This document shows, piece by piece, positions 40,960 to 63,024 of a stretch of 64,000 bases of DNA. The position numbers were made by a program, and so were the translations under genes. Numbering within the stretch: position 1 is the first letter of the stretch; every line of letters starts with the position of its first letter. Origin of the DNA: an uncultured Bdellovibrio sp. (GTDB lineage: Bacteria; Bdellovibrionota; UBA1018); contig CAZBEI010000065.1 in assembly GCA_964490895.1 (NCBI GenBank), positions 1,192 to 65,191 on the forward strand, read 5' to 3'. Below the pieces are notes generated by a model. That model saw only the letters and a list, made by a program, of their open reading frames with translations. It ran no database searches and was not told where the DNA came from.

Positions 40960-41226
40960 ATGATTAAAATAAAATTTCAATTTTTTGGTCTGTTAAAAAA
41001 GCAAATTCCAGCTCCTTTTATCGAAATGGAAGTCGAAGAAGGAATAAAACTAAACCAACTCGTCACAAGGCTTCTCAATGTATTAAAAAACGAAGGACAC
41101 TGCTTACTCAATATCTCTACTCTTGACGAGTGCGCTATTGCCAACGAATCAAGAGTACTAGATAAAAATGAAGCAATCCATGAGAGCTGCACTCTTTCAC
41201 TTTTGCCGCCAGTTTGTGGAGGTTAA
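40960..41226 (+). CDS. moaD: Molybdopterin synthase sulfur-carrier subunit MoaD-like
   Basis: 88 aa ending in Gly-Gly (VCGG). Confidence 0.65.
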   Translation: MIKIKFQFFGLLKKQIPAPFIEMEVEEGIKLNQLVTRLLNVLKNEGHCLLNISTLDECAIANESRVLDKNEAIHESCTLSLLPPVCGG

Positions 41227-41273
41227 GTATTTTGTTTAAATATAAAATAAAAATAACAAAAAAGCCGATAGAA

Positions 41274-42270: not shown

Positions 42271-42619
42271 AATTCGATTTCGTTTTAAAAAAAATGAGCT
42301 TGAGAATCTATTAAAAACAGAAAAAATCGAAGAGACTCTCTTCTTTTCCAGAGAAATGGGTTTTAGTTACTGTGTTTTAATGAAACGAAATATTTCAGAA
42401 ATGGAGCTTTGTTTGTACCCCAATCAATTTGTATTGCATATCCATCCTCATCAGATAGAAACGTTATTAAACCAAGATCTAAGAAAAAACTCAGGTCTGT
42501 TTCAGGAAATTTATAGGGACGAAACAAATGTGTTAAAACTAAAAGTCGAGATTGATTTAGATCCTCACCCTTTTTCGAGGGGGCCTTTCCAGGCCGAAAA
42601 GCCGCCCTCAAGCGAATAG
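42245..42619 (+). CDS. Hypothetical small protein at the end of the Moco operon
   Basis: About 124 aa from MNIRLSPN. No recognised domain. Its 3' end overlaps the convergent moeB by 55 bp. Confidence 0.3.
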   Translation: MNIRLSPNEIRFRFKKNELENLLKTEKIEETLFFSREMGFSYCVLMKRNISEMELCLYPNQFVLHIHPHQIETLLNQDLRKNSGLFQEIYRDETNVLKLKVEIDLDPHPFSRGPFQAEKPPSSE

Positions 42620-45252: not shown

Positions 45253-45627
45253 TCAAGCACAGCATGAAGGCTCTTCTGCTGAAGCACTTTGCCCAGATAC
45301 CGCTTCTTTATATGCTTTAAATGCTTTAATAGCCCACATTTCACCCACACAGCCACCCATAGTAGAGGCAATAGCTAAAAACTCACCAAGTTCTATTTCT
45401 GTAGTGCCAACTGCTACTGCGCGATGGATATAGTATTTAAAACATGGCTCACATCGAGCCGAGATAGCCCAAACCATCGCAGTGAGAATTTTAAATTTCT
45501 GAGGTACCTCACCATCTGAAAAGATTGCCTTCTTCCTCATTTGATCAATCAGTGCTGGGATTCCACTTGTGATTTTAGAAAAGTCCTTCATTAAGTTTAA
45601 GGCAGGATCAATTTTATTATAATCCAT
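45253..45627 (-). CDS. Carboxymuconolactone decarboxylase (CMD/AhpD-like) family protein
   Basis: 124 aa. CEPC redox motif. Last gene of the mer-like operon. Confidence 0.65.
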   Translation of the reverse strand: MDYNKIDPALNLMKDFSKITSGIPALIDQMRKKAIFSDGEVPQKFKILTAMVWAISARCEPCFKYYIHRAVAVGTTEIELGEFLAIASTMGGCVGEMWAIKAFKAYKEAVSGQSASAEEPSCCA

Positions 45628-45637
45628 AAGTCCTCCA

Positions 45638-45931
45638 TTAGTTTTCTATTTTTTTGCATTCTTGAGACGTTGCTTTATATCCCACATCGTTAATTGCTTT
45701 CTTAATAGCTTCTGCATTCGTTTGTGCGGGATCAAATTGAACAACTGCATTTTTCTTTTCAACAAAGACTTTGGCTACTTCAACGCCCTTAATCTTCTTC
45801 ACGGCAGCTTTCACCGTGATGCCACAGGTAGCGCAGGTCATCCCTTGTACATTATAACAAGCCTGCTCTGCCCTGGCTAAGCTTGCTACGTTGAGCATGC
45901 TTATAAAAACCAAGTATATTATTTTTCTCAT
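45638..45931 (-). CDS. merP: Periplasmic heavy-metal-binding protein, MerP-like (signal peptide + HMA domain)
   Basis: Start at MRKIIYLVF with RBS AAGGAGGGAG. GMTCATCGITV metal-binding loop. The track ORF extends upstream to 46012. Confidence 0.65.
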   Translation of the reverse strand: MRKIIYLVFISMLNVASLARAEQACYNVQGMTCATCGITVKAAVKKIKGVEVAKVFVEKKNAVVQFDPAQTNAEAIKKAINDVGYKATSQECKKIEN

Positions 45932-45942
45932 TTCTCCCTCCT

Positions 45943-46299
45943 TTAGGAAAAAAACCAGACAACCCACTGTGGGGAGGTTATTCCCAAGACAGCAACTGAA
46001 ACTCCAATCCAATAAAATATAACCATCTTTCTATATTTTTTGGGATCGGCACAAATGGACCCTGGTTCACAACTGTTACGTCTTCGATAAAGTGTAAAAC
46101 CAGCAACTCCAAAAAGCACTAAGACTAAAATTAACATGGGTACGCGGATCACATCAAATTTTGCCAGAGCTGCTGCACCAGATACTCCAAGAATTGTCAA
46201 AATGAGAGGACCTACACAACATAAAGGGACTAGCATAGAAGCAATAATTCCAGTTGTCACAAGCCATCCAGATTTATTTCCGACTTTGCTCTTGTTCAT
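45943..46299 (-). CDS. merT: MerT-like metal transport membrane protein
   Basis: TM1 Cys pair LVPLCCVGPL and cytoplasmic loop Cys pair SCEPGSIC as in MerT. About 118 aa from MNKSKVG. Confidence 0.6.
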   Translation of the reverse strand: MNKSKVGNKSGWLVTTGIIASMLVPLCCVGPLILTILGVSGAAALAKFDVIRVPMLILVLVLFGVAGFTLYRRRNSCEPGSICADPKKYRKMVIFYWIGVSVAVLGITSPQWVVWFFS

Positions 46300-46568
46300 C
46301 TCGTTCCAACTCCCGCTGCTCGCAGTTCCTTTTCGCTCACGGTACCACTTATACAGCAATCAAGAAGTCTACCGTCTACAACGATAGCAGGAACTTTTGT
46401 AATGCCATATTTTTTTGCTTTATCTCTACACTCATTGGTGGCACATCCAGCATTAAGGTCGTAGATTACGACATTGCATGATGAACATGCTATTTTTTTA
46501 ACTAGGGCCACAACGGGCTCACAAACCGGACAGCCAGAAGTGAAAACCTCAATTTTTCTATTAGCCAT
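46296..46568 (-). CDS. Thioredoxin/glutaredoxin-like small redox protein
   Basis: 90 aa. N-terminal CPVC motif. First gene after the merR-divergent promoter. Confidence 0.55.
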   Translation of the reverse strand: MANRKIEVFTSGCPVCEPVVALVKKIACSSCNVVIYDLNAGCATNECRDKAKKYGITKVPAIVVDGRLLDCCISGTVSEKELRAAGVGTR

Positions 46569-46674
46569 AATTTAGGACTCCTTCTATCATCAGCTTAACC
46601 CCTATACCCAAGTATAGGGTCAATAGAAATTATTTTCTTGGCCTTGTACCTATATATAGGGTTAGAATATAAGC

Positions 46675-47088
46675 ATGAGAAACGGTGTGTCTAAAACTTT
46701 AACTATTGGTCAACTAGCGAAGGCTGCTGATGTTAACATTCAAACCGTTCGTTTTTATGAAAGAAAAGGAATTTTAAAACCCCAAACACGACTAGAATCA
46801 GGCTATCGTATTTACAACGAAGACAGTCTTAGACGTCTTCGTTTTATTCGTCACGCAAAGGATTTGGGTTTTAGTCTTAATGAGATTCAAAGTCTCCTCA
46901 ATCTCAGGGTGCGTTCAGTAGAAAGTTGCAATCAAGTTAAATTGAAGGCTGAGCAAAAGCTGAAAGATGTTCAGCAAAAGATCGTCCAACTCAGAACGTT
47001 AGAACGAACCCTCAAGGGTCTCGTTTCTGATTGTGAAAATCGTGTCGTTTCAGACTGTTGCCCAATAATTAAAAAAATGGAAATCTAA
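46675..47088 (+). CDS. MerR-family metal-responsive transcriptional regulator
   Basis: N-terminal HTH (LTIGQLAKAADVNIQTVRFYERKGIL), coiled coil, and C-terminal Cys cluster CENRVVSDCCPI. Confidence 0.8.
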   Translation: MRNGVSKTLTIGQLAKAADVNIQTVRFYERKGILKPQTRLESGYRIYNEDSLRRLRFIRHAKDLGFSLNEIQSLLNLRVRSVESCNQVKLKAEQKLKDVQQKIVQLRTLERTLKGLVSDCENRVVSDCCPIIKKMEI

Positions 47089-47262: not shown

Positions 47263-50200
47263 TTAATTAGCCCTTGGCATCACTACCGAAGAAGAGGGAA
47301 CTACAGTTCCCTCTTTCATTTCAAACTTCCACTTCCAGATAAAGTAGATCGCTGGGTACACAAGAAGTTCTAGAGCGAAACTCGTTACGAGCCCTCCCAC
47401 CATGGGGGCAGCAATACGTCTCATCACGTCGCTGCCTGCTCCTGCAGCCCACATAATGGGTAGTAACCCCATAAATGCTGCCATGACCGTCATCATCTTT
47501 GGGCGTATCCTCTTGACGGCACCGTGTATGATAGCGTCACAGAGGTCTTCTTTTGTTTTCATTTGCCCAGCCTTAACTTTTTCTTCGTAAGCCAGATCGA
47601 GATAAAGGAGCATAAAGACTCCTGTCTCAGCATCCAAACCCATCAGAGCAATCATGCCCACCCATACGGCAATCGAAATATTGTATCCAAGCAAAAAAAG
47701 AAGCCACACACTCCCAATAACAGAAAAAGGTACCGCGAGCATTACAATGCCAGTTTTTATAATAGATTTTGTATTCATGTAGAGCAAAAGAGCAATCAGA
47801 AAAAGAGTCAGAGGTATGACAACCTTGAGGCGCTCCTTTACGCGAATCATATTTTCGAACTGTCCGCTCCAGACGAGATTATATCCTGTGGGCACTTTTA
47901 CTTTTTGTTCGACAACTTGCTTAGCTTCTTCTACATAACCGCCGATGTCTCTCCCAGCCATATCAACATAGACAAAACCAGCAAGAAGTCCGTTTTCGTT
48001 TCTGATCATCGATGGCCCTTCGACCATCTTAATGTCTGCAATCTGAGCCATTGGGATTTGAACTCCATTTGCTGCAGGAACAAGAACCCGCTTAAGTGCG
48101 TTGATATTATCTCTGAATTCTCTGGCGTATCGAATATTGATAGGATATCGCTCTCGACCCTCTATGGTTGAGGTGATGTTTTCACCTCCAACGGCAGAAC
48201 TGATAACCATTTGAGCTTCGTTGACAGAAATGCCGTATCTCGCAAGCTCATCACGATTTAAAACAAAATCTAAATAATATCCCCCTGCGGCTCTCTCAGC
48301 ATAAACGTTTCGAGTTCCACGAATCCCTCTGACCGCGGCTTCAATTTGTTCACTGGTGGCTTGTATGACTTTAAGATCAGGTCCCATGACTTTAATGCCG
48401 ATCGGGGTTCTGATTCCTGTAGAGAGCATGTCGATGCGGTTTTTGATGGGCATTGTCCAAATATTAGGGATTCCCGCAAATTTTAGTTTTTCATTCATTT
48501 CATTCTGGAGCTCATCAAATGTTTTATGAGGTGGAGTAGTCCAAGAAAAGAGTGGATACATAAATTGAGGGAGCCACGTGTACCATCGCTTGACGTGAGG
48601 CCATTCTGCTACAGGCTTCAGAACAACAGTCGTTTCGACCATCGAAAAAGGAGCAGGATCTGTAGGTGTTTCAGCACGTCCTGCTTTACCAAAAACACTT
48701 TTGACTTCTCCAAATTCTTTAATGAGCTTGTCTTGAATTTGCAAAATACGCTCGGCTTCTGTAACAGACATTCCGGGAAATGCTGTTGGCATATAAAGAA
48801 AAGCTCCCTCATTGAGAGGCGGCATGAACTCTGAGCCTAACTTCATGTAAATTGGTATCGTGGACAAAACTAGAATCACTGCTGCGGTAATTACTTGTTT
48901 GGGATACTTGAGAACAAAGTGAACTGCCGGTTCATAATATTTGAAAAGAACCCGGCTAATAGGATGCTTTTCTTCGGGGTAGTATTTGCCAACGAGGATC
49001 TGATTACCCAGCCAAATGATTTTTTTTCTTAAAAATTCGACCTGGTGATAAAACTTTGGGAGAACTCTAGTCAATGGTGAGTAGACAAAATAATCCATTC
49101 TTGTGAACATCATGCGAAGGGCAGGGTCAACCGTTACGGCAAGAAGAGCTGCTAAAGCCATTGCCAAAGTTTTTGAAAAAGCAAGCGGAGTAAAGAGTCT
49201 TCCCTCTTGATCTACCAAAGTAAAAACAGGCAAAAACGAAACAGCGATAACAAGGAGAGAAAAAAATACAGAGGGCCCTACTTGTTTAAGAGCATTTAAG
49301 CGAACTTCGTGAAAATCGCCCTTTCTTCCTGTAGAATTCCACTCCTCAAGTTTCTTATAAGCATTTTCGACTTCCACTATGGCCCCATCCACCAAAACAC
49401 CAATAGAAATAGCAATTCCAGCCAAAGACATGATGTTAGTCGTAAGCCCCAAGAAGTACATGGGGATAAAGGCTAGGAAAACTGAAATCGGAATGGTAAC
49501 AATAGGGACTGTTGCCGAAGGGATATGCCACAAAAAAAGAAGTATGACAAAGCTCACAATGATTACCTCAAGCTTTAGTTCATGCTTGAGAGTGTCGATG
49601 GCTCTTGTGATCAGATCAGAACGGTCATAGACAGGAACGATTTTTAATCCCGGAGGAAGACTTGGTTTTATTTCTTCGAGTTTTTCTTTTACTCGATTGA
49701 TAACATTAAGAGCATTTTCTCCTTGGCGCATGACAACGATGCCACCAACAGCGTCTCCCATCCCATTGAGATCAGTGACACCTCTCCTGATATCAGGACC
49801 TAGTTCCACGTTGGCTAAGTGTTTAACCAGTATAGGAACACCTGTTTTGGGATCATGTCCCACTACGACTTTTTCAATATCACTTTTTTGCTTAATATAT
49901 CCACGGCCACGAACCATGTATTCGGTGCCAGCAAATTCGAGCACCCTTCCACCCGTATCGCTATTGCCCTTTCGGACGGAGTCCACAAGCTGTGTGAGAG
50001 TCATCCCATAAGAAATAAGACGGTTGGGATCTACGTTAATTTGGTACTGTTTTACAAATCCTCCCACAGAGGCCACCTCCGCAACTCCGGGAACAGATTG
50101 CAGGTGGAATTTTAGCTGCCAATCTTGGATACTTTTCATTTGAGCAAGATTGAGATGATCTGACTCATCAATAAGGGCGTATTGGTAGACCCAACCCACA

Positions 50201-50601
50201 CTTGTGGCATCAGGGCCAATTTCTGTTTTGACCCCTTCGGGAAGTCTTGGCAGGATTTTACTTAGATATTCTATAACGCGTGACCTTGCCCAATAGAGAT
50301 CAGTTCTGTCTTCAAAAATAACATAGACATAGGAGTATCCAAAATCTGATAACCCTCGAACAGTTTTTATTTTTGGTGCGCCCAAAAGAGCTGTAACAAT
50401 GGGATAAGTGACTTGATCTTCGAGTATGTCTGGTGACCTATCCCATCTTGAATAAATAATGACCTGCGTATCAGATAAATCTGGAATCGCATCCAGAGGG
50501 ATATGTCTCACACACCACCACGCTCCTACCATGGCTACACCAGTGAGGATAAAAACGAGCAATTTATTTTTTGCACTCCACTCAATGAGGTTTTCAATCA
50601 T
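47263..50601 (-). CDS. cusA: Heavy-metal efflux RND transporter, CusA/CzcA family
   Basis: 1112 aa, 12 TM helices, two large periplasmic loops. HME-RND family. Confidence 0.9.
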   Translation of the reverse strand: MIENLIEWSAKNKLLVFILTGVAMVGAWWCVRHIPLDAIPDLSDTQVIIYSRWDRSPDILEDQVTYPIVTALLGAPKIKTVRGLSDFGYSYVYVIFEDRTDLYWARSRVIEYLSKILPRLPEGVKTEIGPDATSVGWVYQYALIDESDHLNLAQMKSIQDWQLKFHLQSVPGVAEVASVGGFVKQYQINVDPNRLISYGMTLTQLVDSVRKGNSDTGGRVLEFAGTEYMVRGRGYIKQKSDIEKVVVGHDPKTGVPILVKHLANVELGPDIRRGVTDLNGMGDAVGGIVVMRQGENALNVINRVKEKLEEIKPSLPPGLKIVPVYDRSDLITRAIDTLKHELKLEVIIVSFVILLFLWHIPSATVPIVTIPISVFLAFIPMYFLGLTTNIMSLAGIAISIGVLVDGAIVEVENAYKKLEEWNSTGRKGDFHEVRLNALKQVGPSVFFSLLVIAVSFLPVFTLVDQEGRLFTPLAFSKTLAMALAALLAVTVDPALRMMFTRMDYFVYSPLTRVLPKFYHQVEFLRKKIIWLGNQILVGKYYPEEKHPISRVLFKYYEPAVHFVLKYPKQVITAAVILVLSTIPIYMKLGSEFMPPLNEGAFLYMPTAFPGMSVTEAERILQIQDKLIKEFGEVKSVFGKAGRAETPTDPAPFSMVETTVVLKPVAEWPHVKRWYTWLPQFMYPLFSWTTPPHKTFDELQNEMNEKLKFAGIPNIWTMPIKNRIDMLSTGIRTPIGIKVMGPDLKVIQATSEQIEAAVRGIRGTRNVYAERAAGGYYLDFVLNRDELARYGISVNEAQMVISSAVGGENITSTIEGRERYPINIRYAREFRDNINALKRVLVPAANGVQIPMAQIADIKMVEGPSMIRNENGLLAGFVYVDMAGRDIGGYVEEAKQVVEQKVKVPTGYNLVWSGQFENMIRVKERLKVVIPLTLFLIALLLYMNTKSIIKTGIVMLAVPFSVIGSVWLLFLLGYNISIAVWVGMIALMGLDAETGVFMLLYLDLAYEEKVKAGQMKTKEDLCDAIIHGAVKRIRPKMMTVMAAFMGLLPIMWAAGAGSDVMRRIAAPMVGGLVTSFALELLVYPAIYFIWKWKFEMKEGTVVPSSSVVMPRAN

Positions 50602-51806
50602 TTTAGTTTTTGCAGTACCCCACGTAATTTTGATTCAGAATCAATGAGAAAATTGGCCGATGTGACAACCACATCACTCTCCTTAAGCCCTGAGAGTACT
50701 TCGTAATAATCATCTGTTCTAACGCCAACTTTTATGGGCTGGGGCTCGAAACGTCCCTTGTCATTGACAAGAAAAACAAAAGATTGTTGTTCAGAATGCA
50801 TCACTGAGTTTTCAGGCACTACAAGTCGTTTACCTAAATCCACTTTGATCCTGACATTCAAGAAGGTATCTGGCCTGAGCAGACCTTCTGTGTCGGGAAC
50901 TAGGGCTCTGAGACGAACAGTTCTTGTTGGAGAATTTACAACCGGGCTTATGCTTGAGATTTTACCGTGAAATGTTTTACCGGGAATGGATGGGGACTCG
51001 GCCTCTACTTCTGCCGAAGCACTTAGCCCCGCGACTTCATATTCGAAAACTTCTGCGTATACCCACACAGAACCGCTGGGTAAAAGCAGGTTGAGTGAAT
51101 TACTCCCTCCCTTCGAAAGACCACGGATTTGAGTGTCTCCTAACCCCAGCAGCCGGAGCTTTGTTTTAGCAGATGTGATGAGTTCATTGGCTTGCTTTTG
51201 CAGTCCAGGATAAGAATTTCCCTCCATCTGAGACCTTGCAGTCACAGCCTGTTGATATTCTTCGATTGCTATGTATAAATCAGGATCAAAAGCAACTCGC
51301 CCGCTAGCCTTTACCTCACGATTTAATTGCTTAAACTCCACTTTTGCTTTTGTTACACCAATGAGCTGCTGTCTTTCGGATGATAATGTAAAACTCCCTC
51401 GGCCCTCCACTTGAGTTGATCCATTTTCCTCAACCTCGTCCGAATAGACAGCTACATAATCCATTCCCATATTGTCCTTAGTTGGTGCGGGCGAAGTAAC
51501 TTTTGGATCCATAGGATTTCTGTAATAGAGAACCTTTCTTTCGTTTTTGTCAGAAGGTTTGTCAGAAGGTTTGTCAGAAGGTGTGTCAGCTGTGGCCCCA
51601 TCGTCTACTTTTTGTAAATCCATGTGACAAACTGGGCATTGATCTGGATGATCCGAAATTACCGAAGGATGCATGGGGCAACTGTAAACTGTTTTTGGAG
51701 CTCTTCCGTGTCCAGCTGACTCCTGGAATTTTTTTTTGGCAATGATATAACCACCCATACCAAAAACAAGGGCAAAGGACGTACATAAAGCCAAAATTTT
51801 TTTCAT
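50598..51806 (-). CDS. cusB: RND efflux periplasmic adaptor (CusB/CzcB-like) with N-terminal metal-binding CPMHP..CPVCHM motif
   Basis: Signal/TM anchor, a YSCPMHPSV....CPVCHMDL finger-like motif, beta-barrel/lipoyl membrane-fusion-protein domains. Contains a (PSDK)x3 repeat. Confidence 0.8.
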   Translation of the reverse strand: MKKILALCTSFALVFGMGGYIIAKKKFQESAGHGRAPKTVYSCPMHPSVISDHPDQCPVCHMDLQKVDDGATADTPSDKPSDKPSDKNERKVLYYRNPMDPKVTSPAPTKDNMGMDYVAVYSDEVEENGSTQVEGRGSFTLSSERQQLIGVTKAKVEFKQLNREVKASGRVAFDPDLYIAIEEYQQAVTARSQMEGNSYPGLQKQANELITSAKTKLRLLGLGDTQIRGLSKGGSNSLNLLLPSGSVWVYAEVFEYEVAGLSASAEVEAESPSIPGKTFHGKISSISPVVNSPTRTVRLRALVPDTEGLLRPDTFLNVRIKVDLGKRLVVPENSVMHSEQQSFVFLVNDKGRFEPQPIKVGVRTDDYYEVLSGLKESDVVVTSANFLIDSESKLRGVLQKLK

Positions 51807-53122
51807 TTTAGACTCTCTCCTAGTGGCTCGCCCAACAAGGCTTCTAGTTCAGCAATTTTAGATTCATAGTTTACCAGTGCTTCGTAATAGGACAACTCTG
51901 TTTGAAAACGAGTTTTTATGAGATTAAGGAGAGACGCATACTCAATTTTACCTGTAGAATAAGCTAATTTGCCACTCTGTGTAGACTGCTCAGCAAGGGG
52001 TAGCAGTCCCCCACCAAATAAACTCAGTCGTTTGTTAGCTTCTTGTAGTTCTGAAAAAATCGTGTGAACGCTATGAAGAATATGGTTTCTTTCTTCGTTT
52101 AACAGGGCGTCAGACTTTGCTTCTTGAGCTCTTGCGCCTTTAACCTCCTCTGATTGCTTGCTAAAGGTCCAAATAGGAAGTGACATAAAAACTCCACCTG
52201 AGACAAGACTTACACCTCGATCACCAGGACTTGGCTGTCTCTTTGTGTAGGAAACTTTGAATTCAAAATCAGGAAGATAGTTCCACTTTGCATAAGAGAG
52301 TTTAGTTTCAGCAGACTCAAGCAGAGCTCTCGCTGATTTGATACTAGGATTTTTAGAAATAATTTTTTCTGCTAAAATTTTCTCATTTATTGCTGAAAAA
52401 TTAATGGAGGTTTTTTTGATTTCTTCAGGTTTACCAATTTCATGATGACTGGGTCTTCCTAAGATATGATTTAAATCCCCGGTTTTAGTTTGAATCAGTC
52501 TTTCAGCACTAAACAAATGATCTGTAAACGCGGCCTCCTCAAGCTGTACACTGAGAAGCTCAGCTAGAGTGATTTTGCCAAGAGAATTTCGACTGCGAGT
52601 CACTGCAACCATCTGTTTCATCACTCCCAATTGTTCGTGAGTGATGTCTTCCCTTTTATATGCTAAAAATAACTCATAGTAGGCAAGCCGCACATCTTTA
52701 ATGAGTTGCAATTGTTGATTATTAAAATTTTCTTTTTTGGAGTTGTATTCGTGGGTTGTGGCTCTGCTCAACTTTGTGAGCTTTCCCGGAAATGGTATTT
52801 TCTGAGTAATACTCAGCTGGTTCCCAGTCATTCCAAACTCTCTTGAACTCAAAGTATCGGCTGGATAATTCATTGCCTCAAATCCAATCATTGGATCCTC
52901 ATAAGCACCTCTCGGCCCTATCTCCGCTTCCTTGGAAAGAGCTTCATATTTTGATGCCTTAAGTAGTAGATTATTATCTAAAGCTTCTTGAATAACGTCT
53001 TTGAGTCTTATAGAGTCTTGGGCCAGGCCTTTGACCGATGGTAAAGCAGCCCCAAAAAGAAAACAACCAAAAAGAAAACAATAAGATAGCCAAAATAAAT
53101 TAAACCGGGTGTTAAATACCAT
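51803..53122 (-). CDS. cusC: Outer-membrane efflux protein (TolC/CusC family)
   Basis: 439 aa, signal peptide, two coiled-coil repeats. Overlaps cusB by 4 nt. Confidence 0.8.
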   Translation of the reverse strand: MVFNTRFNLFWLSYCFLFGCFLFGAALPSVKGLAQDSIRLKDVIQEALDNNLLLKASKYEALSKEAEIGPRGAYEDPMIGFEAMNYPADTLSSREFGMTGNQLSITQKIPFPGKLTKLSRATTHEYNSKKENFNNQQLQLIKDVRLAYYELFLAYKREDITHEQLGVMKQMVAVTRSRNSLGKITLAELLSVQLEEAAFTDHLFSAERLIQTKTGDLNHILGRPSHHEIGKPEEIKKTSINFSAINEKILAEKIISKNPSIKSARALLESAETKLSYAKWNYLPDFEFKVSYTKRQPSPGDRGVSLVSGGVFMSLPIWTFSKQSEEVKGARAQEAKSDALLNEERNHILHSVHTIFSELQEANKRLSLFGGGLLPLAEQSTQSGKLAYSTGKIEYASLLNLIKTRFQTELSYYEALVNYESKIAELEALLGEPLGESLK

Positions 53123-53227: not shown

Positions 53228-53932
53228 CTACAAACTAGTCACAATACCTAGCAAAAAAGAATGACCAGAGAAATTCTCGCCAGTGACTGGAGAAAATATG
53301 TGACGATAATCAACCATCAATTGAGTTTTATCCGTACCCATCCAAGCAAGGTTATGGCGGATACCGAGCGTCGCATGATAAGCCAACGAACCTCCTCGTC
53401 TCTGAGCTCCGTCAAGGTCTGAAGACTGTAAATAGGTGTAATATCCCACCCCAAGTTCAACGACTGGCATCGCCCATTTCATTATTGGAGCATAGTCTCC
53501 CAAGTAGACTAACCCAAAAGTCAGCGGTAACAGTGAGAGCCGACTGGGGCCTGCGGGTATGCCATCTGCGAAGCTTGCGTTGCCTATGTGTGAACTGTAA
53601 CCCAAGTCTACCCGTACACCCCAGCTTCCGAGAAATGTAATCGGAGTCGTTTCCCAGCCGATTTCTAAAGCAAACGCGGAATCATTTTTAGGATAATAAA
53701 AATTATAAGCGTCTCCAGTTAAGGTTGTTCCATTGAGCGATCTTGTTCCGATTTGAAATTGTAAGGTAGAAAAATGACTTGAGTCAGCTGAGGACAATTG
53801 CTCTAGGTAAACGACGTTTTGAGAGGACTTCGAAGCTCCTGGATCTAGAAGTAGGGGCAATTTTTCATTCCCAGCAGCCAATGACCCAGCAGCCGATAGA
53901 GCAACAAAACTCATTACGAGAACCCGATTCAC
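53228..53932 (-). CDS. Small outer-membrane beta-barrel protein
   Basis: Signal peptide, eight or more amphipathic strands, aromatic-rich C-terminus. Confidence 0.45.
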   Translation of the reverse strand: MNRVLVMSFVALSAAGSLAAGNEKLPLLLDPGASKSSQNVVYLEQLSSADSSHFSTLQFQIGTRSLNGTTLTGDAYNFYYPKNDSAFALEIGWETTPITFLGSWGVRVDLGYSSHIGNASFADGIPAGPSRLSLLPLTFGLVYLGDYAPIMKWAMPVVELGVGYYTYLQSSDLDGAQRRGGSLAYHATLGIRHNLAWMGTDKTQLMVDYRHIFSPVTGENFSGHSFLLGIVTSL

Positions 53933-55266
53933 TTTGCCACCTTCAGATTAGCAATCTCGCCAAGGCCCTCGTGAAAAATTAAGCCTTCGATATTTTTACC
54001 GGCATGAAGCCCCTTTAATGTTAGGGGATAGGCACCGGCCGTTTGAGCGACCAATCGGCGTGTATAAATATTAAATTCAACACGAGAAAATGGGAGTTCC
54101 ACGTACTCAGTCGAGCCAAAAGCACCAAAATACAATCTCATGTTTCCGGTAATTGAAATCCCGTCAGGTTGAGAAAGATCCTCTGAGCTAATGAAATTCG
54201 CCGTGACCCTTTCGGGCAAATGGGATTGAGTATTCGTATTTTCAAGTTTCCCCTGGTAGATCCCAGCCAGAGACTGAATTTTTTCGTATCCAAGAGGAAA
54301 TAAGGGATAAGATGATCCGACTGAAAAAATAACTTCTCCTGTTTCTCCCATAAAACGGTTACTCCAGTGTCCTCGCATGTCTGCGCCCACAAACTGTCCA
54401 AAGAGTGAGACATTGAGACCCTCTTGTCTCAGAGTGAGTTGCCCACTGATCGGGTTAAAGGACACATCATCGTAGGAATAAGTCGTTTGCTCTGTGGAGT
54501 TATCATCCCCAAAAATCAATCTCAATGTCGCTCTCACGTTGATAGCGTCAGGAAGTTTGACTGACGTACTCAGAGCCAACTTCGCCAATTGGAGTTGGTT
54601 TGATTTATCCCAAAGGGCAAGGCCTCTGTATTCGCCCTTAATATGATGGAGGGGGTGATCAGAAATTTTGCCTGTTCCACCCGATGATACCGAGCGAACG
54701 AGTTCCAGGCTCCCCTGCTCGGAAGCACTAGGAGCAGACCAAGTTCCATGCAAGACCGCTCTGTTAGTAGAAACATCAAGATAGATGAAAATGTCTTTAT
54801 ATTGGCTATTATTCACAACCAAGTTCATCTTTGCAGTATTCAGATCAAAATCACCCTTACCAACAGAGAAACTCACAAACTCAGAGCTAGAGTCATTTGG
54901 CAAATTTGGCGGCGAATTTGGAGCCGCTTCTGAAAAATTAAAGCGAATGAACCCCGACAATGTTGGAACAAGAATGGGATCCACCTGTCCATCTTGAGTT
55001 TCAGGAACATTTTTAATTTCTAAATTCAAGGTTATATTTTCTTGAGTTCCGGCAGATCGTATAAACTTTCCGTGGTATTCCCCAGCGACTTGCTGGAGCT
55101 CTTTAGTTTTTGTCTGCGTTTTGAGCTGATTTCGCTCTCTTAAACTTTCTCTTTCGCTTTTGTTATTGGTCCCACATGAAACAAAAAAGACAATAGAAAT
55201 GCTTATTAGGACGCAGTGAAGCACAGATTGGATGATACTTGCTTTTACTTTCATACTTATGGCCAT
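53929..55266 (-). CDS. Lipoprotein with two copies of a novel ~100-aa module (paralog 1 of 3)
   Basis: Lipobox FVSC. Repeated blocks LRLIFGDDNSTEQTTYSYDDVSFNPISGQLTL and MRLYFGAFGSTEYVELPFSRVEFNIYTRRLVAQT. Confidence 0.5.
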   Translation of the reverse strand: MAISMKVKASIIQSVLHCVLISISIVFFVSCGTNNKSERESLRERNQLKTQTKTKELQQVAGEYHGKFIRSAGTQENITLNLEIKNVPETQDGQVDPILVPTLSGFIRFNFSEAAPNSPPNLPNDSSSEFVSFSVGKGDFDLNTAKMNLVVNNSQYKDIFIYLDVSTNRAVLHGTWSAPSASEQGSLELVRSVSSGGTGKISDHPLHHIKGEYRGLALWDKSNQLQLAKLALSTSVKLPDAINVRATLRLIFGDDNSTEQTTYSYDDVSFNPISGQLTLRQEGLNVSLFGQFVGADMRGHWSNRFMGETGEVIFSVGSSYPLFPLGYEKIQSLAGIYQGKLENTNTQSHLPERVTANFISSEDLSQPDGISITGNMRLYFGAFGSTEYVELPFSRVEFNIYTRRLVAQTAGAYPLTLKGLHAGKNIEGLIFHEGLGEIANLKVAK

Positions 55267-56087
55267 TTCTGCATTGTGACTCGTCCCACTTTTCCGAGTC
55301 CATCGGTATACAAGTCTCCCTCCGCTGTTGCATCGTAGGACATATACCCCTTAAAAGTAAGACCGTAGTTTTCGGTTTTAGCGGTCAAAAACCGACTGTA
55401 AGAATTAAACTGTACGTCCGTAAATTTTATTTCTATGTATTCTAGAGAATTGAAACTTCCAAGATACAATCTCAAATTTCCATTAATTGCTAACTTCGGT
55501 GTAGGGCCAGAGAGATCTTGGGTTGCAACAAATGACATTGTCAATCTTTCCGGAAGACTGGATTGGGGATTTGTGTTTGCAAGTATACCACGATAATATC
55601 CAGACAACTCTTTGACGTTTGTTGATGCAAGCGGTGGAACAGGAAAGTTGTCTTTTGTTGCTATAAATTTTCCAACCCGACCGACAATCGAAGAATACCA
55701 GTCCCCCTCAATTTGGCCCCCCTTAAGAATGGCTACGGCACTCACATCGCTTCCGTCGTTGGTAAATACCAGTTGTCCAGTGATGGGATTAAGGGGCACG
55801 TTCGCAAATTCGTAAGTTAGAAACTCATTCGAATCGGCTGCGCCAAAGATAATCCTCATATTAGCAGAAATTTTGAATTCTCCGCTCGGATTTGTTGTTT
55901 TTAAGGTGATCAGTCCGAACTGATAATAGTTAGTACCTTCATGCTGAAAGATAACCTTATAAAGTCCCGCAACTGAACTCACGTCCTGCGAGATAGCATA
56001 TTGAGAAAAGACAAGGGCAACCAAAAAAGTCGCTGAAAAAATTAAACGAGCCAAAGCTGAGCGTGACACTAATATAAAACGAAACAT
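55257..56087 (-). CDS. Secreted protein with two copies of the same novel module (paralog 2 of 3)
   Basis: Start at MFRFIL with RBS GAAGGGGGG. Blocks MRIIFGAADSNEFLTYEFANVPLNPITGQLVFT and LRLYLGSFNSLEYIEIKFTDVQFNSYSRFLTAKT. Confidence 0.5.
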   Translation of the reverse strand: MFRFILVSRSALARLIFSATFLVALVFSQYAISQDVSSVAGLYKVIFQHEGTNYYQFGLITLKTTNPSGEFKISANMRIIFGAADSNEFLTYEFANVPLNPITGQLVFTNDGSDVSAVAILKGGQIEGDWYSSIVGRVGKFIATKDNFPVPPLASTNVKELSGYYRGILANTNPQSSLPERLTMSFVATQDLSGPTPKLAINGNLRLYLGSFNSLEYIEIKFTDVQFNSYSRFLTAKTENYGLTFKGYMSYDATAEGDLYTDGLGKVGRVTMQKWP

Positions 56088-56194
56088 AGAACCCCCCTTC
56101 GCATGCATTCACCCTTGACGTATACCTATCTTGGGGTATATGTCAAGGCTAAGAAAAAATGCTGTAAAAAGAGAAAAACTAGGGGGGGTTTTAA

Positions 56195-56644
56195 ATGAAA
56201 TTTAAAAAATTAAGTGATTTGATCTCTGGGGTCTTTATTGTGGGAATACTGAGTTTAAGTATTTCAGCCTTAGCAGCTGATCTCCATTGCAGTATTTGTA
56301 GCATGAAAATCCCACAGAGTTCAAAAAACCATCTTGTCCTAAAAAACTTGGATCCCAAGAAACCATCTCTTCATGCTTGCTCACTATCTTGTGCGACTAA
56401 GGCCAGAAAATATGACCCAAAATACGCTCAAATAGAGGTTTCTAATTTTAATCATCCTGACGAATTTCTCTCTGGTGAAAAAGCTTTTTTTCTCATGAAG
56501 AGTGAAAAAATTCAGGCCGATCTTGGCCCAATGGCGATGCTCCCTTATTTTGGTGCTTTTAGTACAAAAGCAGAAGCAGAGGCAGCTCAAAAAAAATATG
56601 GGGACGGAGTCATTGTCCAAGGATTTGAGGGTGCTTTAAAATGA
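56195..56644 (+). CDS. nosL: NosL-family copper-binding lipoprotein (Cu chaperone)
   Basis: Signal peptide. CSICSM aligns to the NosL CxxCxM motif. C-terminal A.LGPMAMLPYFGAF..AEA.AAQKKYGG..V.F resembles NosL. Confidence 0.55.
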   Translation: MKFKKLSDLISGVFIVGILSLSISALAADLHCSICSMKIPQSSKNHLVLKNLDPKKPSLHACSLSCATKARKYDPKYAQIEVSNFNHPDEFLSGEKAFFLMKSEKIQADLGPMAMLPYFGAFSTKAEAEAAQKKYGDGVIVQGFEGALK

Positions 56645-57120
56645 GAACCCGCACACTTTTTTCGGCGGTTTTTTTGGGTCTGTTATTGGGTTGTGGTCCT
56701 ATGAATTCTCCCAAAAAAATAAACTCAGATGATCAAAATAAAAAAAAATCTTCTCCTACCGCCTCTGGAGCTACTCGAGTTTCAAAAAATAACCAGTTCT
56801 ATGTTTATGCAACACCTGTAAATCCATCTGCGTCTAATATACCAAGCTCCACGCGTCTAGAGATAGGCGAAAATACTTATCTCTTTCGGTTTTCGCATTG
56901 CGAAGATCTAAAAAATCCATCTGATCAAGCGACCCTCAAAATTACTTATTGGATGCCAGAGATGCCAGACATGGGCAAATCTGATGGAGTGGCCGTTCGT
57001 CAAACAGATGGATCTTATACATCGACACTTTTCTTTGGGATGCCAGGCCATTGGGAAATCACACTCAAAATGCAAGATGGAAATATACAGGATGATTATG
57101 TCTTTGATGAAAATTTCTGA
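56641..57120 (+). CDS. YtkA/FixH-like Met-rich copper-binding lipoprotein
   Basis: Lipobox LLGC. WMPEMPDMG Met motif and GMPGHWEITL block. Confidence 0.5.
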   Translation: MRTRTLFSAVFLGLLLGCGPMNSPKKINSDDQNKKKSSPTASGATRVSKNNQFYVYATPVNPSASNIPSSTRLEIGENTYLFRFSHCEDLKNPSDQATLKITYWMPEMPDMGKSDGVAVRQTDGSYTSTLFFGMPGHWEITLKMQDGNIQDDYVFDENF

Positions 57121-58057
57121 TATTTCGAAAAGCACTCTTTTGTTTTCATTTGTTTTCATTTGTTTTTCTGTACCTTCCTACGCTTCAAGCTGTTGTGCTG
57201 GAAGTGGAGGGCAAAGTCTTTGTGTTTTACCTTCGGAACAAAGCTACCAATTGGGGGCATCCAGTGCTTACCGGTCTATCGAAGGGCGCTTTGATCCTTA
57301 TGGACAATATACTGCCAATAAAGAGGGTGATCGCATTCGCTCCATTGTCACAGTTCTTGGAGCTGCCTATCGCCTTAATCATGATTGGCAGTTGGGTCTG
57401 AGTGTCCCCATTACAAGTAATCAGCAAAGTTTTTCTGGAAAAAACCATGGGGCAACCTCTCTGGGAGACCCTGCCTTTGAAGCGAGGTATACTTTTTTGG
57501 AGGACCTAAGCTTTCTCACATTTCGACCCGGACTTACTTTCTATGGAGGAGTTCGTTTGCCTGTTGGAAAATCTATTTATAATTCGACAGACCCTTACAA
57601 TGCAGATGCTGTGGGTGATGGAACAACGACTTTTCATATGGGGCTGAATGCCTCAAAAATCTATAGCCCAATAAAACTCACTTTTGATAGTGCATTTTTT
57701 TATCCGTTCAGTAAGAAAGTTACCGAAATGCGGGGAGACCCTGTTTCATCCCCCTACCCACTTAAAAGTGGAAACAAAGTGCAACTTCTAGAGAGCGCTG
57801 GTTATCTGGTCAATGAACACTGGAGTGGCACTTTAGGTGTAAAGCAGCTTTGGATTTTCGAAAGCTCTCTCAATTCAGAGCCTGTATTGGGCTCTGCGGG
57901 GCGTCTTTTTTCGAGTCTCATCACACTTAATTATTTTCACAACGCTTCTTTAGGTTTGGGTCTCACTTATGAAACAGCATTTCCATTTTACCATTACCTA
58001 GCGAATCAGCCCTATGTCCAACAAATTTCTTTGGCCGCAACTTATGGAGGATTTTAA
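57107..58057 (+). CDS. Outer-membrane beta-barrel channel protein
   Basis: Start at MKISDISKS with signal peptide; the track ORF starts at 56984. Amphipathic strands. Ends ..AATYGGF. Confidence 0.5.
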   Translation: MKISDISKSTLLFSFVFICFSVPSYASSCCAGSGGQSLCVLPSEQSYQLGASSAYRSIEGRFDPYGQYTANKEGDRIRSIVTVLGAAYRLNHDWQLGLSVPITSNQQSFSGKNHGATSLGDPAFEARYTFLEDLSFLTFRPGLTFYGGVRLPVGKSIYNSTDPYNADAVGDGTTTFHMGLNASKIYSPIKLTFDSAFFYPFSKKVTEMRGDPVSSPYPLKSGNKVQLLESAGYLVNEHWSGTLGVKQLWIFESSLNSEPVLGSAGRLFSSLITLNYFHNASLGLGLTYETAFPFYHYLANQPYVQQISLAATYGGF

Positions 58058-58495
58058 ATGAAACAATCAACACTGAATGTCTTTGGGCTTAGTAACTGGT
58101 TAGCAGTTACTCTAATTTTTGGAATTTTCAGTCTGGGATCCAACTCTGGCTGGACTGACTCAAATCCTATAAAGTTTGATCCTGCAGAGCCAAGTGCGGG
58201 TGGGAACTATCAAGTTTCAGGCAATTGGTTAGAACTCAAGCGGGGCTGGAATGTCTTAACTCTTCAAATTGTAGATTCTAACTCCAATCCTGTCACTGGG
58301 GCAGAGCTAAAAGTTATCTACGACATGGTTGGAATGCCCATGAATCCTCCCAATAAGCCAGTAGAGGAAAAGGGGGAGGGTCGTTACAATAAACAGGTTT
58401 TTTTAGGGATGCGAGGTCAATGGAAATTTGATCTGACGATCCACAAAGACACTGTAGAAGACACGCTCTCACACATTGAAAACGTTAAAAATTAG
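58058..58495 (+). CDS. Second YtkA/FixH-like Met-rich lipoprotein (paralog of 56641-57120)
   Basis: YDMVGMPMNPP and GMRGQWKFDLTI blocks parallel the first copy. Confidence 0.5.
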   Translation: MKQSTLNVFGLSNWLAVTLIFGIFSLGSNSGWTDSNPIKFDPAEPSAGGNYQVSGNWLELKRGWNVLTLQIVDSNSNPVTGAELKVIYDMVGMPMNPPNKPVEEKGEGRYNKQVFLGMRGQWKFDLTIHKDTVEDTLSHIENVKN

Positions 58496-58532
58496 AAATA
58501 TTGAGAGTGAGTATTGGTTCTAAGGAGGTTTT

Positions 58533-60131
58533 ATGAAAGTTCTCTATTTTTTATTTTTGCAGCTTTTACTGTCCACTATAATTGCACCCACAAATGCACA
58601 GACTAGCGAAGGCTCCGTATTTGGAAGATATCTGGGTGTTCTTGAACACGAAAGAACGGGAGAACAGCAGTTAGCTAAACTTGATTTTATACTGGACCGA
58701 AATGAGGGTTCAACGCTTGCTTTGAAAGCAATTCTGACATTGCATTTTGGAGATTATACAAGCCAAGAATACGCTGCATTTCATTTTAATCAGGTTCAAT
58801 TCAATCTGCTGACTTCTAGTCTTGTCTTTGATCAGCCTGATCAAGACGTGAGAGTTGTTGTAGAGCGATTCGAGGGTGGAGTGCTTTCGGGCACGTTAAA
58901 ATCAAATATTTTTGGAACCGTAGGAAAAATAAAATTACAAAGAGATGAGGGCCAGAGTGCTGTTCTAAGCTCACTCCCTTTGATTGAACCCGTGCAGGGC
59001 GAATACAAGGGTAAATGCAATAACAAAGAGTCCTGGTTAAGACTCTTTACCTATCGAGCTACCGAAGATATTACTAAAACTGGAAACCCATTTGGGGCCT
59101 ATGAAATAGTGGGTCACATTGCCCAATATGATTTTGCTCTTTGCGGGCCAGACCCTGAAAGACCTTGTGTTTTAGCAGAGTATAATGCAGGTTCTTATGA
59201 TTATTTTTCGCAGGAGCTTAAGCTGATCGGAAGACTGAGCCGACTAAAATGTAAAAAAATAGGATCACAGTTGAATTGTGATTCTTGTCAATTTCAAAGA
59301 GTTTCGAATGAAAACGAATTAAAAAACCTACACCCACCCACATCAGTACCAGAACTTTTTGTATTAAGCTCTGATAGTTCTCCTCACCCATCACAACCGA
59401 TGTCTATCAGTGGCGAATACGAAGGATATTTGTATCATGAGTATTTGAACACCTATCAAAAAGCACGAATTGATCTTTCAACTTTTCAAACAATAGAAAA
59501 TGGAGAAAGTCACTTCAAAGTATCGGCAGCCGCACGGCTTATTTTTGGCAATGGCAATAAAGAAGCCGAGGAGATTTTGAGTTACCGCTTTGATAATGTG
59601 GACTACCCAAACCCAACCCGACCTTTTCAACTTGTATTTGCTCGTTCCTCAGCTGATGTGGATGCTATCATTCGGATTTCGTCTTTTAAGGATGGAGTGA
59701 TTAAAGGCGAATGGTTTTCTCTCATGTTTGGCCGAGTGGGTGCTTTTGAACTCCGGAAAAAAGAGTTAGAGCAGCTACCCACCCCAAAACAACTCATGAC
59801 AGGTCTTACAGGTGAGTATAAAAACAGCACGTGGTTCATTAGTCTTGCTGCTCGATTAGGAAGAACACCTATTAATACAGATAATCCATTTTTCCCTTTG
59901 CAGTTGGAAGGGTTTGTTGGTCCTAATAATAGATTTTTTAGAAAAGATGACATCCAAAGAGGAAGTTATGATTTTTACACTGGAAAATTTGCATTACTCT
60001 ATGACAATAATTATTTACTAACCGGAACTCGATTTCAAGATGGAAATTTTTCCCTTTCTTACGTTGCCAATAAGTTTGCTGTATTGGCTCAGAATTTTTA
60101 TCCAGATCTTTATAAAAAAATAAATGAATAG
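58533..60131 (+). CDS. Secreted protein with two copies of the novel module plus a Cys-rich insert (paralog 3 of 3)
   Basis: RBS AAGGAGG. Blocks LTLHFGDYTSQEYAAFHFNQVQFNLLTSSLVFDQ and ARLIFGNGNKEAEEILSYRFDNVDYPNPTRPFQLVF. Confidence 0.5.
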   Translation: MKVLYFLFLQLLLSTIIAPTNAQTSEGSVFGRYLGVLEHERTGEQQLAKLDFILDRNEGSTLALKAILTLHFGDYTSQEYAAFHFNQVQFNLLTSSLVFDQPDQDVRVVVERFEGGVLSGTLKSNIFGTVGKIKLQRDEGQSAVLSSLPLIEPVQGEYKGKCNNKESWLRLFTYRATEDITKTGNPFGAYEIVGHIAQYDFALCGPDPERPCVLAEYNAGSYDYFSQELKLIGRLSRLKCKKIGSQLNCDSCQFQRVSNENELKNLHPPTSVPELFVLSSDSSPHPSQPMSISGEYEGYLYHEYLNTYQKARIDLSTFQTIENGESHFKVSAAARLIFGNGNKEAEEILSYRFDNVDYPNPTRPFQLVFARSSADVDAIIRISSFKDGVIKGEWFSLMFGRVGAFELRKKELEQLPTPKQLMTGLTGEYKNSTWFISLAARLGRTPINTDNPFFPLQLEGFVGPNNRFFRKDDIQRGSYDFYTGKFALLYDNNYLLTGTRFQDGNFSLSYVANKFAVLAQNFYPDLYKKINE

Positions 60132-60141
60132 GAGAGTCGAT

Positions 60142-61152
60142 ATGAGGTTTAAATTTTTTGAAAATGCTATTGCCTTTACAGTAAGCTGCGTTTTTATCCT
60201 ATTATTGTCTCAAGAAGGGTTTACTTACCCCAGCATAAGAACATACCTTGGAAAAAGCTTTCTTGGAAAATCAGCCGAAAATAAAAAGCAGTGCGAAGAC
60301 CTTTTGCCAAAATTAGTTGCAACAATCGATCATGTTAAAGAATCAGGGATTAAAGTGGTTCATAGTCAATGTAGGGAAAATGAAAATTCCTATCAAATAG
60401 AGATTGATTATGGATATCAGCTCTCGGATCCACTCTATTCTGATATTCTTACACCCAAATCTCAAAATTCATGCTCCACAGATGTTCTAGATGTTAGACA
60501 AAGGCTATCGGAGGCAAAAAACAGTCTTTATTTACTAGATGTGTATTGCAAACCTGATGGAGAAAACGAAAGAATTCAAATCGATTACTTTAATCCAGAA
60601 CATTTAGTTTTAGTTCAAATAGAATATCCATTGCAGTTTTCTAAGCATAGTGACTGCGAAGCAGAGTCCTCTCGTCTATTCAAATCTATTTCTAGTAGCG
60701 TGATTTTCGCACTTCGAAACTATTGCAGAAGGGTCACCTATAGTACCACCGGAGAGATTTCGTTTCGCTCTATCGTTGATTATTATAAGCCTATCTACAA
60801 ATCCATTAGAACTGAAATCGTGCTAAGCACAACGGACAAAACCGAATGTGTCCACCAGTTAGAGGTTGTGAAGGCAAAATTCAATCAGCATAAGTTCACA
60901 GATATTTTTTTGGCTTGCACTTTAGAAGGTGGTTTGTTTATGGGGGTTTTGGCTTTTGTAGAAACTACGGATAGAAGTTTAAGCTTTGTTTCGCCTGAGC
61001 ATTTTTATGACAAGAAGACTTGCGAACAAAAAGGAGAACTCATGTCACGGTACTATGAAAAATTAAACACACCTGTTGTGCATTGGAGTTGTACACAGCA
61101 GTACGTCAATGGCTCATATGATCTATTGTTTTTTTATTACTATCAAATTTAA
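60142..61152 (+). CDS. Secreted hypothetical protein (Cys-rich)
   Basis: Start at MRFKFF with RBS AGGAGAG; the track ORF starts at 60124. Signal/TM anchor. No recognised domain. Confidence 0.4.
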   Translation: MRFKFFENAIAFTVSCVFILLLSQEGFTYPSIRTYLGKSFLGKSAENKKQCEDLLPKLVATIDHVKESGIKVVHSQCRENENSYQIEIDYGYQLSDPLYSDILTPKSQNSCSTDVLDVRQRLSEAKNSLYLLDVYCKPDGENERIQIDYFNPEHLVLVQIEYPLQFSKHSDCEAESSRLFKSISSSVIFALRNYCRRVTYSTTGEISFRSIVDYYKPIYKSIRTEIVLSTTDKTECVHQLEVVKAKFNQHKFTDIFLACTLEGGLFMGVLAFVETTDRSLSFVSPEHFYDKKTCEQKGELMSRYYEKLNTPVVHWSCTQQYVNGSYDLLFFYYYQI

Positions 61153-62664: not shown

Positions 62665-63024
62665 TTGTATGCTGAACTAAGCCAGCTGATTCAAGCTAAA
62701 AGGCTTTTGCCAGAGCAAACCTTATTCAGCTCTGAAAAGGGGACTCCGATTGATCATGATAATTTTGTGGGCCGATATTTTGAAAAAGACCTCAAAGATG
62801 CGGGGTTAAAAAAAATTCGGTTTCATGACTTGCGACATACGGGAGTGACTTTGATGGTTGCAGAAGGACTAGACTTAAAAACAGTCAAAGAAATCTGCGG
62901 TCACAAAGATATCTCTACAACAATGAAGTATGTGCACTTAGTAGCAGATTGTATTAAAAATGTTGCAAAAGTATTCGCAATAGTGCCTGCTGCAGCATGT
63001 CCAAAGCTTCGTCTTGTCAGTTAG
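62665..63024 (+). pseudogene. Tyrosine recombinase/integrase C-terminal fragment (N-terminally truncated)
   Basis: Catalytic-domain blocks RFHDLRHTGVTLMVAEG and GHKDISTTMKYVHL (active-site Arg, His and Tyr). Only ~119 aa, with an upstream in-frame stop. Confidence 0.7.

Follow-up and report, generated by a model that had tools for sequence, protein, structure and literature searches.

What are three paralogous secreted proteins doing beside a copper-type efflux operon in an uncultured Bdellovibrio sp.? They are encoded on contig CAZBEI010000065.1 of assembly GCA_964490895.1, within the stretch of 64,000 nucleotides (positions 1,192 to 65,191) that was analysed here and that we call the window. 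An initial annotation, made from the letters alone, had found a repeated module in these proteins, here named A, B and C, and had proposed that they serve copper capture or cuproenzyme maturation. It had placed them between cusCBA on the left and a TlpA-like gene on the right, and both flanks were recovered, the right-hand one as a thioredoxin-fold gene of the TlpA/ResA type. Comparison with other loci points us to another role: A, B and C, together with a small outer-membrane β-barrel, would form a Bdellovibrionota envelope accessory cassette of metal resistance-nodulation-division (RND) pumps, probably docking at the outer-membrane factor (OMF). We hold this proposal tentatively, giving it somewhat less than an even chance of being right.

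Modules, fold and distribution of A, B and C

All three open reading frames (ORFs) were present where the initial annotation had located them, and the three example strings that it quoted were found in their translations. The proteins are built from X modules of ~115 amino acids (aa) and, in C, a second type of barrel, Y.

53929..55266, minus strand: protein A, a lipoprotein of 445 aa with lipobox FVSC, a charged conserved helix and three X modules
54667..55086, minus strand: N-terminal divergent X module of A (aa ~61-200; alignment of 25 orthologues, hhalign)
54292..54654, minus strand: module X1 of A (aa ~205-325; BLAST, A 209-445 vs B 46-281)
53932..54279, minus strand: module X2 of A (aa ~330-445; BLAST)
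55257..56087, minus strand: protein B, 276 aa, with a Sec signal peptide and two X modules
55638..55976, minus strand: module X1 of B (aa 38-150; model strands 41-145; hhalign vs other X modules, E 5e-17 to 8e-29)
55260..55616, minus strand: module X2 of B (aa 158-276; model strands 163-275; hhalign)
58533..60131, plus strand: protein C, 532 aa, with a Sec signal peptide and four barrels in the order X-Y-X-Y
58611..58952, plus strand: module X1 of C (aa 27-140; hhalign vs B module 1, E 4e-22)
58980..59342, plus strand: module Y1 of C (aa 150-270), second barrel type, Cys-rich (hhalign; model strands 156-256)
59394..59762, plus strand: module X2 of C (aa 288-410; hhalign vs B module 1, E 8e-29)
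59784..60128, plus strand: module Y2 of C (aa 418-532; hhalign; model strands 427-529)

The paralogy of A, B and C through a repeated module is far above chance, as both BLASTP and profile-profile comparisons bear out. A and B are 36% identical over 239 aa (BLASTP, E 8e-48), and B and C gave two separate matches (E 4e-18 and 4e-11). Using profile-profile comparison of the family alignments (hhalign), we related B module 1 to B module 2 (E 5e-17), C X1 to C X2 (E 7e-24), and the N-terminal domain of A to B module 2 (probability 92%, E 6e-7). The Y domains of C are related to each other (E 7e-10) and had no significant match to the X modules in the same type of comparison; six nearly invariant cysteines mark Y1 (C162, C204, C212, C240, C249 and C252). 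Two module copies per protein, as originally described, is the correct number for B, while A has three and C has two X plus two Y. The start of B at 56087 has a ribosome-binding site, AGGGGGG, upstream, and an identical 276-aa protein is found in the database.

The lipobox cysteine of A is present in 25/25 orthologues, where the +2 residue is G, A, S or T and never Asp, and a conserved charged helix follows it. The size of A across loci ranges from 167 aa, comprising the lipid anchor, the helix and one barrel, to 686 aa. The N-terminal domain is the sole part of A kept in every locus.

The structure prediction suggested in the initial annotation was carried out with AlphaFold2 on family alignments, and it produced confident models for B (predicted local distance difference test, pLDDT, 92.3; predicted TM-score, pTM, 0.80), with two 8-stranded barrels, and for C (pLDDT 89.6; pTM 0.89), with four. 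All X and Y modules of the two proteins were modelled as closed antiparallel 8-stranded up-and-down barrels, which have the strand number and the length (~100-120 residues) of calycin/streptavidin-like barrels. Because their structural neighbours are generic 8-stranded barrels only, we regard the module as a new sequence family in a common fold, and the fold gives no pointer to function. The top Foldseek matches in the PDB, the ATP-synthase assembly factor BFA1 and AttH/kievitone hydratase (E 2e-5 to 3e-3), likewise contain two consecutive barrels per chain, but they differ in domain packing (TM-score 0.2-0.3), share 8-9% identity and belong to unrelated biology. Streptavidin/avidin, Cap15, Gid4 and de novo barrels resemble the modules at the level of the fold only (6-14% identity), without a Pfam match and with binding residues that are not shared. 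Membership of the modules in the avidin family was rejected, as neither the Pfam signature nor the biotin-binding residues were found.

The initial annotation could match the module to no known family, and we confirmed this against Pfam-A and NCBIfam. At E <= 1, Pfam returned zero matches for A or B and noise for C (DUF5108, E 0.021), NCBIfam only noise (E > 0.005, far under the cut-offs), and the precomputed Pfam annotation was empty for 109/109 homologues. An exhaustive profile search among 1.84 billion representative proteins retrieved 310 family proteins at E <= 1e-3. Among the best 150 of these 310, lengths cluster at ~270 aa (B type), ~415-445 aa (A type) and ~520-545 aa (C type), with an additional group at ~665-680 aa in which A is fused to extra modules. 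There were 47 orthologue clusters for B (45-57% identity) and 62 for C, B being the most conserved member of the cassette.

All loci from species-representative genomes (24/24) belong to metagenome-assembled genomes (MAGs), and no cultured, studied strain is among them. Their titles are mostly those of Bdellovibrionota (Pseudobdellovibrionaceae, Bacteriovoracaceae, Bdellovibrionaceae); the few that are titled otherwise, for instance 'Polynucleobacter', look like binning labels. The A/B/C family is unannotated and confined to one phylum. The paralogues, whose conservation in other genomes had been left as a question by the initial annotation, are kept across Bdellovibrionota MAGs. The literature on Bdellovibrio heavy-metal RND systems, MXAN_2562 and accessory barrels of heavy-metal efflux (HME) RND pumps yielded nothing on this family.

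Association with metal efflux operons

Gene neighbourhoods were compared in 24 genome loci, 21 metagenome loci and the loci L029-L031, by ORF clustering checked with the source gene tables. The conserved order is B, A, c2 (~250 aa), OMF, RND pump, C, where c2 occupies the position of a 234-aa small barrel in the window. Every locus reaching far enough has B, A and c2 side by side and contains an OMF, and an HME-RND pump of the CusA/CzcA family accompanies the cassette in all of these but one. The exception, L030, keeps C-B-A-c2-OMF and has no RND pump within 10 kb; since the OMF is present there without the RND, the cassette is tied most tightly to the OMF. The position of C is variable, either before B or after the pump. 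Cassette genes overlap or lie a few nucleotides (nt) apart in the window and in L029, and they are interleaved with pump genes, as in the orders RND-c5-OMF-C and c2-MFP-OMF-C-c15-MFP-RND, where MFP is the membrane fusion protein. The cassette thus shares an operon with RND and OMF genes across genomes, as components of HME-RND operons do, L030 being excepted for the RND. On these grounds the link to periplasmic or outer-membrane metal handling made in the initial annotation stands. Frequent neighbours are ZntA-like P-type ATPases or cation diffusion facilitator (CDF) transporters; metal-type two-component systems are often near, and ~9 loci have one of the OmpR type upstream, in divergent orientation.

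In the window, the pump genes and the small barrel adjoin A as follows.

53228..53932, minus strand: small outer-membrane β-barrel of 234 aa, its start overlapping the end of A by 4 nt
51803..53122, minus strand: OMF, CusC/TolC-like, probably non-lipidated (NCBIfam TolC/NodT; N-terminus)
50598..51806, minus strand: MFP, CusB-like, with an N-terminal heavy-metal-binding domain (Pfam HlyD_D23 and HMBD; NCBIfam CusB)
47263..50601, minus strand: CusA-type HME-RND pump with the Met triad intact (PDB and signature of transmembrane helix 4, TM4)

The cassette is independent of pump class. All tested RND proteins pass the TIGR00914 cut-off (CusA/CzcA heavy-metal family), and by their TM4 signatures the linked pumps divide into three classes, namely Cus-type (window), DFG-DGA-VEN (5 loci) and AIG-DDA-VEN (15 loci). 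Following Nies's HME classification, these signatures would separate monovalent from divalent classes. The window's pump matched E. coli CusA structures in the PDB at E 4e-298, vs 2e-136 for ZneA, and it conserves LYMP, FSMV and IDML, with AISIGVLVDGAIVEVEN as its TM4; the CusA methionine triad occurs in this pump only. Relative to window CusA, the linked RND proteins are 25-33% identical, and B is 45-57% identical to window B in every locus, regardless of pump class. Compared with the B of L006, identity is ~50-68% across pump classes.

The 234-aa barrel was matched by the NCBIfam model for MXAN_2562-family barrels at E 8e-12, under the cut-off. Its alignment with the c2 family is borderline (218 columns, probability 64%, E 6e-5; hhalign), with a YxQSxxLDG motif in both, and a direct search with a hidden Markov model (HMM) of the c2 family did not retrieve it.

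Most partner OMFs have no lipobox. Canonical MFPs are confined to the DFG-class loci and the window: the MFP HMM found no MFP-like ORF (E < 0.01) in 15 genome loci of the AIG-DDA class, and the HlyD Pfam domain is absent from the gene tables of L029 and L031. A, B and C were themselves considered as MFPs and rejected. They have no HlyD-type Pfam match, the MFP HMM finds canonical MFP genes only, and the models of B and C are all-β, without the α-hairpin that HlyD/CusB-type proteins have beside their barrel-sandwich and lipoyl domains.

Several operons show further peculiarities. Two MFP genes, in the order c2-MFP-OMF-(C)-MFP-RND, are found in the DFG-class operons of L005, L009, L013, L014, L026, L032 and L036. 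In MFP-less operons, a His-rich periplasmic protein of 145-197 aa without family match, c5, is encoded between RND and OMF (L029 15947-16471; L022 15305-15898; L031 8200-8637, and others); its mature N-terminus reads HEGHxxPGALPPAPHGG and is followed by a His/Glu/Asp-rich stretch. Another His-rich protein, c17 (175-195 aa), takes the czcB position in neighbouring OMF-c17-RND operons (L006 3724-8705, minus strand; L007; L024 1-4989), and as its C-terminus resembles the end of an MFP it may be a severely shortened adaptor. The idea that c5 and c17 are degenerate MFPs was dropped, hhalign having found no significant similarity.

The window's own arrangement consists of two divergent operons. The leftward one is B-A-barrel-cusC-cusB-cusA, and the rightward one comprises a NosL-like gene, a YtkA gene, a second barrel, a second YtkA gene, C and a 342-aa protein. 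They are separated by a gap of 107 bp at 56088-56194, between B and the NosL-like gene, which contains one further feature.

56113..56148, no strand assigned: inverted repeat of 14 nt with an 8-nt spacer, CCTTGACGTATACC-N8-GGTATATGTCAAGG, in the divergent intergenic region

The repeat is unique in the window and was matched in 0/100 shuffles. Overlapping promoter-like elements, TTGAC[AG]-N16-TATA[CT]G, lie in its region on both strands, and a single regulator bound there could thus govern the two operons together. In other loci the repeat has no conserved counterpart upstream of B. Two candidate identities were discarded: a CsoR-type operator (TATACC..GGGGTATA core), as the window showed no CsoR-like ORF by motif search and other loci do not conserve the palindrome, and a MerR-type promoter, because both promoter-like elements have 16-nt spacers.

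Possible roles of the cassette

A structural role at the pump is suggested by the interleaving of the cassette with pump genes and by its constant association with an OMF, even without an RND. It is further suggested by the nature of A, always a lipoprotein with a conserved charged helix, alongside OMFs that are mostly non-lipidated, and by the lack of an MFP in most of the operons. From this we infer that the cassette associates physically with the pump and that the OMF is the component contacted. A, B and C would then be structural partners of the tripartite pump. Lipoprotein A would dock on the largely non-lipidated OMF from the outer-membrane side, in the manner of YbjP on TolC, and B and C, as soluble periplasmic proteins, would add periplasmic scaffolding. 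In MFP-less operons, B and C may assume part of the adaptor role. In this genome the cassette has become attached to a Cus-type Cu(I)/Ag(I) pump and is divided between two divergent operons with one shared palindromic promoter region, copper-chaperone genes (two YtkA and one NosL-like) having been inserted into the second operon. The more far-reaching idea that the tandem barrels and the small barrel are the adaptor apparatus of an unrecognised HME-RND pump class without a canonical MFP strikes us as improbable.

Several points weigh against the cassette as a pump accessory. Contact of A, B and C with the pump is something that we infer. The cassette is not simply an MFP substitute, since it is also present in operons with one or two canonical MFPs, and genomes with MFP-less operons, such as GCA_964648725.1, could carry the corresponding MFP gene at another site. 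In the window, neither the OMF nor the small barrel is clearly orthologous to its conserved counterpart, c3 and c2 respectively. Depending on how Bdellovibrionota sort their lipoproteins, A could also be anchored in the inner membrane. Finally, the conserved His, Glu and Asp residues of the loops could form hard-metal sites, which would fit metal binding instead.

This last point leads to the best surviving alternative, which we consider possible but doubtful: the barrels could be a periplasmic metal-binding buffer or chaperone comparable to CusF, CzcE or ZinT, whose loop His, Glu and Asp bind cations and either pass them to the pump or keep them sequestered. All the operons belong to a metal-efflux context, the mature proteins are acidic (isoelectric point 5.5-5.9), and a calycin-type metal binder of the periplasm exists in ZinT/YodA, whose barrel resembles that of lipocalins and which binds Zn and Cd. 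Conserved loop residues include H49, E88, E180, E216 and D262 in B, and H302, E303, E347 and D377 in C. The Glu of the β3-β4 loop does not vary in B (E88, E216) and varies little or not at all in C (E79, E347). B module 1 and C module X2 also conserve an H-[ED] motif where β1 ends; a generic hard-metal site could be formed by such residues. However, the window's B, the only Cus-linked one, has the candidate ligands, which are conserved at >= 92% of positions across orthologues linked to the three pump classes, with no sign of specificity tuning. In the models, moreover, the conserved loops are distributed over the two ends of the barrel and do not surround one pocket, and many of these operons already contain a dedicated His-rich protein, c5.

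Softer metals fare worse. A CusF-type site for Cu(I)/Ag(I) is very unlikely, as the X modules contain no conserved Met or Cys and the His, Met and Cys counts of mature B are 1, 4 and 0. As to the metal sites that the initial annotation had recommended looking for, no soft-metal ligands are conserved, and His, Glu and Asp are conserved in loops. A, B and C have no Pfam match to the CusF, ZinT or CopC families. Two memberships were rejected individually: that of ZinT/YodA, a family marked by a ZinT Pfam domain with a His-rich metal site, and that of CusF-type chaperones, given the 8-stranded fold, the lack of conserved Met in B or C and the lack of a CusF Pfam match.

The cassette could alternatively be an envelope-protection or outer-membrane maintenance module that is only co-regulated with the pump and makes no contact with it, its barrels binding, for example, a lipid, a peptidoglycan fragment or another small ligand. 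The cassette includes its own outer-membrane barrel, the conservation of B exceeds that of any pump component, and the RND pump is missing at one locus (L030). We nevertheless find this unlikely, as the cassette genes are interleaved with pump genes beyond mere adjacency, the OMF is never missing, and the best structural neighbours are narrow barrels of the avidin, Cap15 or de novo type, which leave little cavity.

The initial annotation had read the locus as copper-specific, with A, B and C working alongside NosL-like and YtkA chaperones in copper capture or in the maturation of cuproenzymes (NirK, caa3). The window does contain two YtkA-domain proteins with Met-rich motifs, flanked by the family's genes, a divergent promoter region common to chaperone genes and cassette, and a bona fide Cus-type pump. 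Of the chaperones as described, both YtkA domains were found but a lipobox (LLGC) in the first only, and the NosL-like assignment is sub-threshold (Pfam E 0.056, 14 bits vs a cut-off of 24). The outer-membrane barrel reported among them corresponds to a gene at ~57110-58057, which is present and to which no family could be assigned. Using tblastn, the NosL-like, YtkA, second-barrel and TlpA proteins matched only L001 among the 24 genome loci. L001 is a contig with 100% identical proteins and was taken as the same organism, and the other distinct genome loci gave 0/23 matches. A functional unit of these genes with the family is consequently not supported, and as they are found with it nowhere else, and the window's OMF and barrel are not clear orthologues, the window's arrangement is derived. 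A copper-specific role is unsupported, because NosL-like and YtkA genes accompany the family only in this genome and conserved Met or Cys ligands are lacking. The reading, which we now hold to be very improbable, is largely refuted by the neighbourhood comparison: most linked pumps are non-Cus and have ZntA-like ATPases or CDF transporters near, B identity does not depend on the three pump classes, no Cu(I) ligands are conserved, and cuproenzyme genes occur in no neighbourhood examined.

Surroundings of the locus and comparison with known systems

The second barrel of the window (~57110-58057, plus strand), a putative outer-membrane protein between the two YtkA genes, has a Cys-rich mature N-terminus, SSCCAGSGGQSLC, and ends in ...TYGGF; it had no family match in Pfam or NCBIfam. 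The remaining features lie after C and on both sides of the metal-efflux genes.

60124..61152, plus strand: secreted protein of 342 aa, overlapping the end of C by 8 nt, no family match
46675-47088, plus strand: MerR-family regulator, in a mer-like cluster adjoining cusA
45943-46359, minus strand: MerT, mer-like cluster
45638-46012, minus strand: periplasmic HMA/MerP-like protein, mer-like cluster
45253-45627, minus strand: CMD/AhpD-like CxxC protein, mer-like cluster (span 45253-47088)
62665-63024, plus strand: phage-type integrase, C-terminal fragment (Pfam E 1e-16), bordering the metal-resistance genes on the right

In the 342-aa protein, a unit of ~60 aa that contains one C-x23-26-C pair is repeated five times. 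The same Cys spacing is found in proteins encoded after C in L005 (17567-18577) and L002 (20191-20837) and beside a C-like gene in L028 (3971-5068); phmmer found no link between these counterparts and the 342-aa protein.

The region, bounded by merR-merT-merP and, at the opposite side, by an integrase fragment, looks like a metal-resistance island, and it may be a decayed genomic island. No merA was seen in the mer-like cluster (45253-47088), and the whole window yielded no tRNA gene. A block at 35966-43668, upstream of the metal-resistance genes and identified from the translations by eye, resembles molybdenum-cofactor biosynthesis genes; it comprises radical-SAM MoaA-like, MoeA-like, MoaE-like and MobA-like proteins, a MoaC/MogA-like fusion and a MoeB/ThiF-like protein with a rhodanese domain.

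The protein family is new, while its fold is common and the HME-RND efflux system is well known. Tripartite RND pumps are thought to require three parts only, namely the transporter, the MFP and the OMF. Against this background stands a cassette limited to one phylum, with three to five secreted proteins that lack annotation, kept across three pump classes and often without a recognisable MFP. If its products are pump subunits, they would define a new pump architecture. Were they an adaptor apparatus without an MFP, they would reveal a new way of coupling an RND transporter to an outer-membrane channel, a result that the efflux field would find highly interesting, and if they bind metal they would be a novel kind of metal-binding protein in the periplasm. 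In both cases a testable context would be gained for several hundred 'hypothetical proteins'.

Among known systems, CusF/SilF are likewise small secreted β-barrel proteins of HME-RND operons, and the cus operon of the window has no cusF. CusF is, however, a 5-stranded OB-fold barrel with a His-Met-Met(+Trp) site, whereas the A/B/C family has 8-stranded barrels without conserved Met and is distributed over three pump classes. The nearest precedent in function is YbjP, an E. coli outer-membrane lipoprotein that binds TolC 3:3 in AcrAB-TolC (PMC13095208). It shares no sequence relation with A, which consists of 8-stranded barrels and is accompanied by two soluble paralogues as well as a further barrel in the outer membrane. 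The gene for A lies inside the pump operon and ybjP does not, and binding of A to the OMF is presumed by us. The two are alike in that A is a conserved lipoprotein, lipid-anchored in all 25 orthologues, whose partner OMFs mostly have no lipobox, and YbjP has been proposed to make up for the missing lipid anchor of TolC, an anchor with which other OMFs are equipped (PMC13095208). The recent discovery of YbjP on TolC shows that accessory envelope proteins can go unnoticed.

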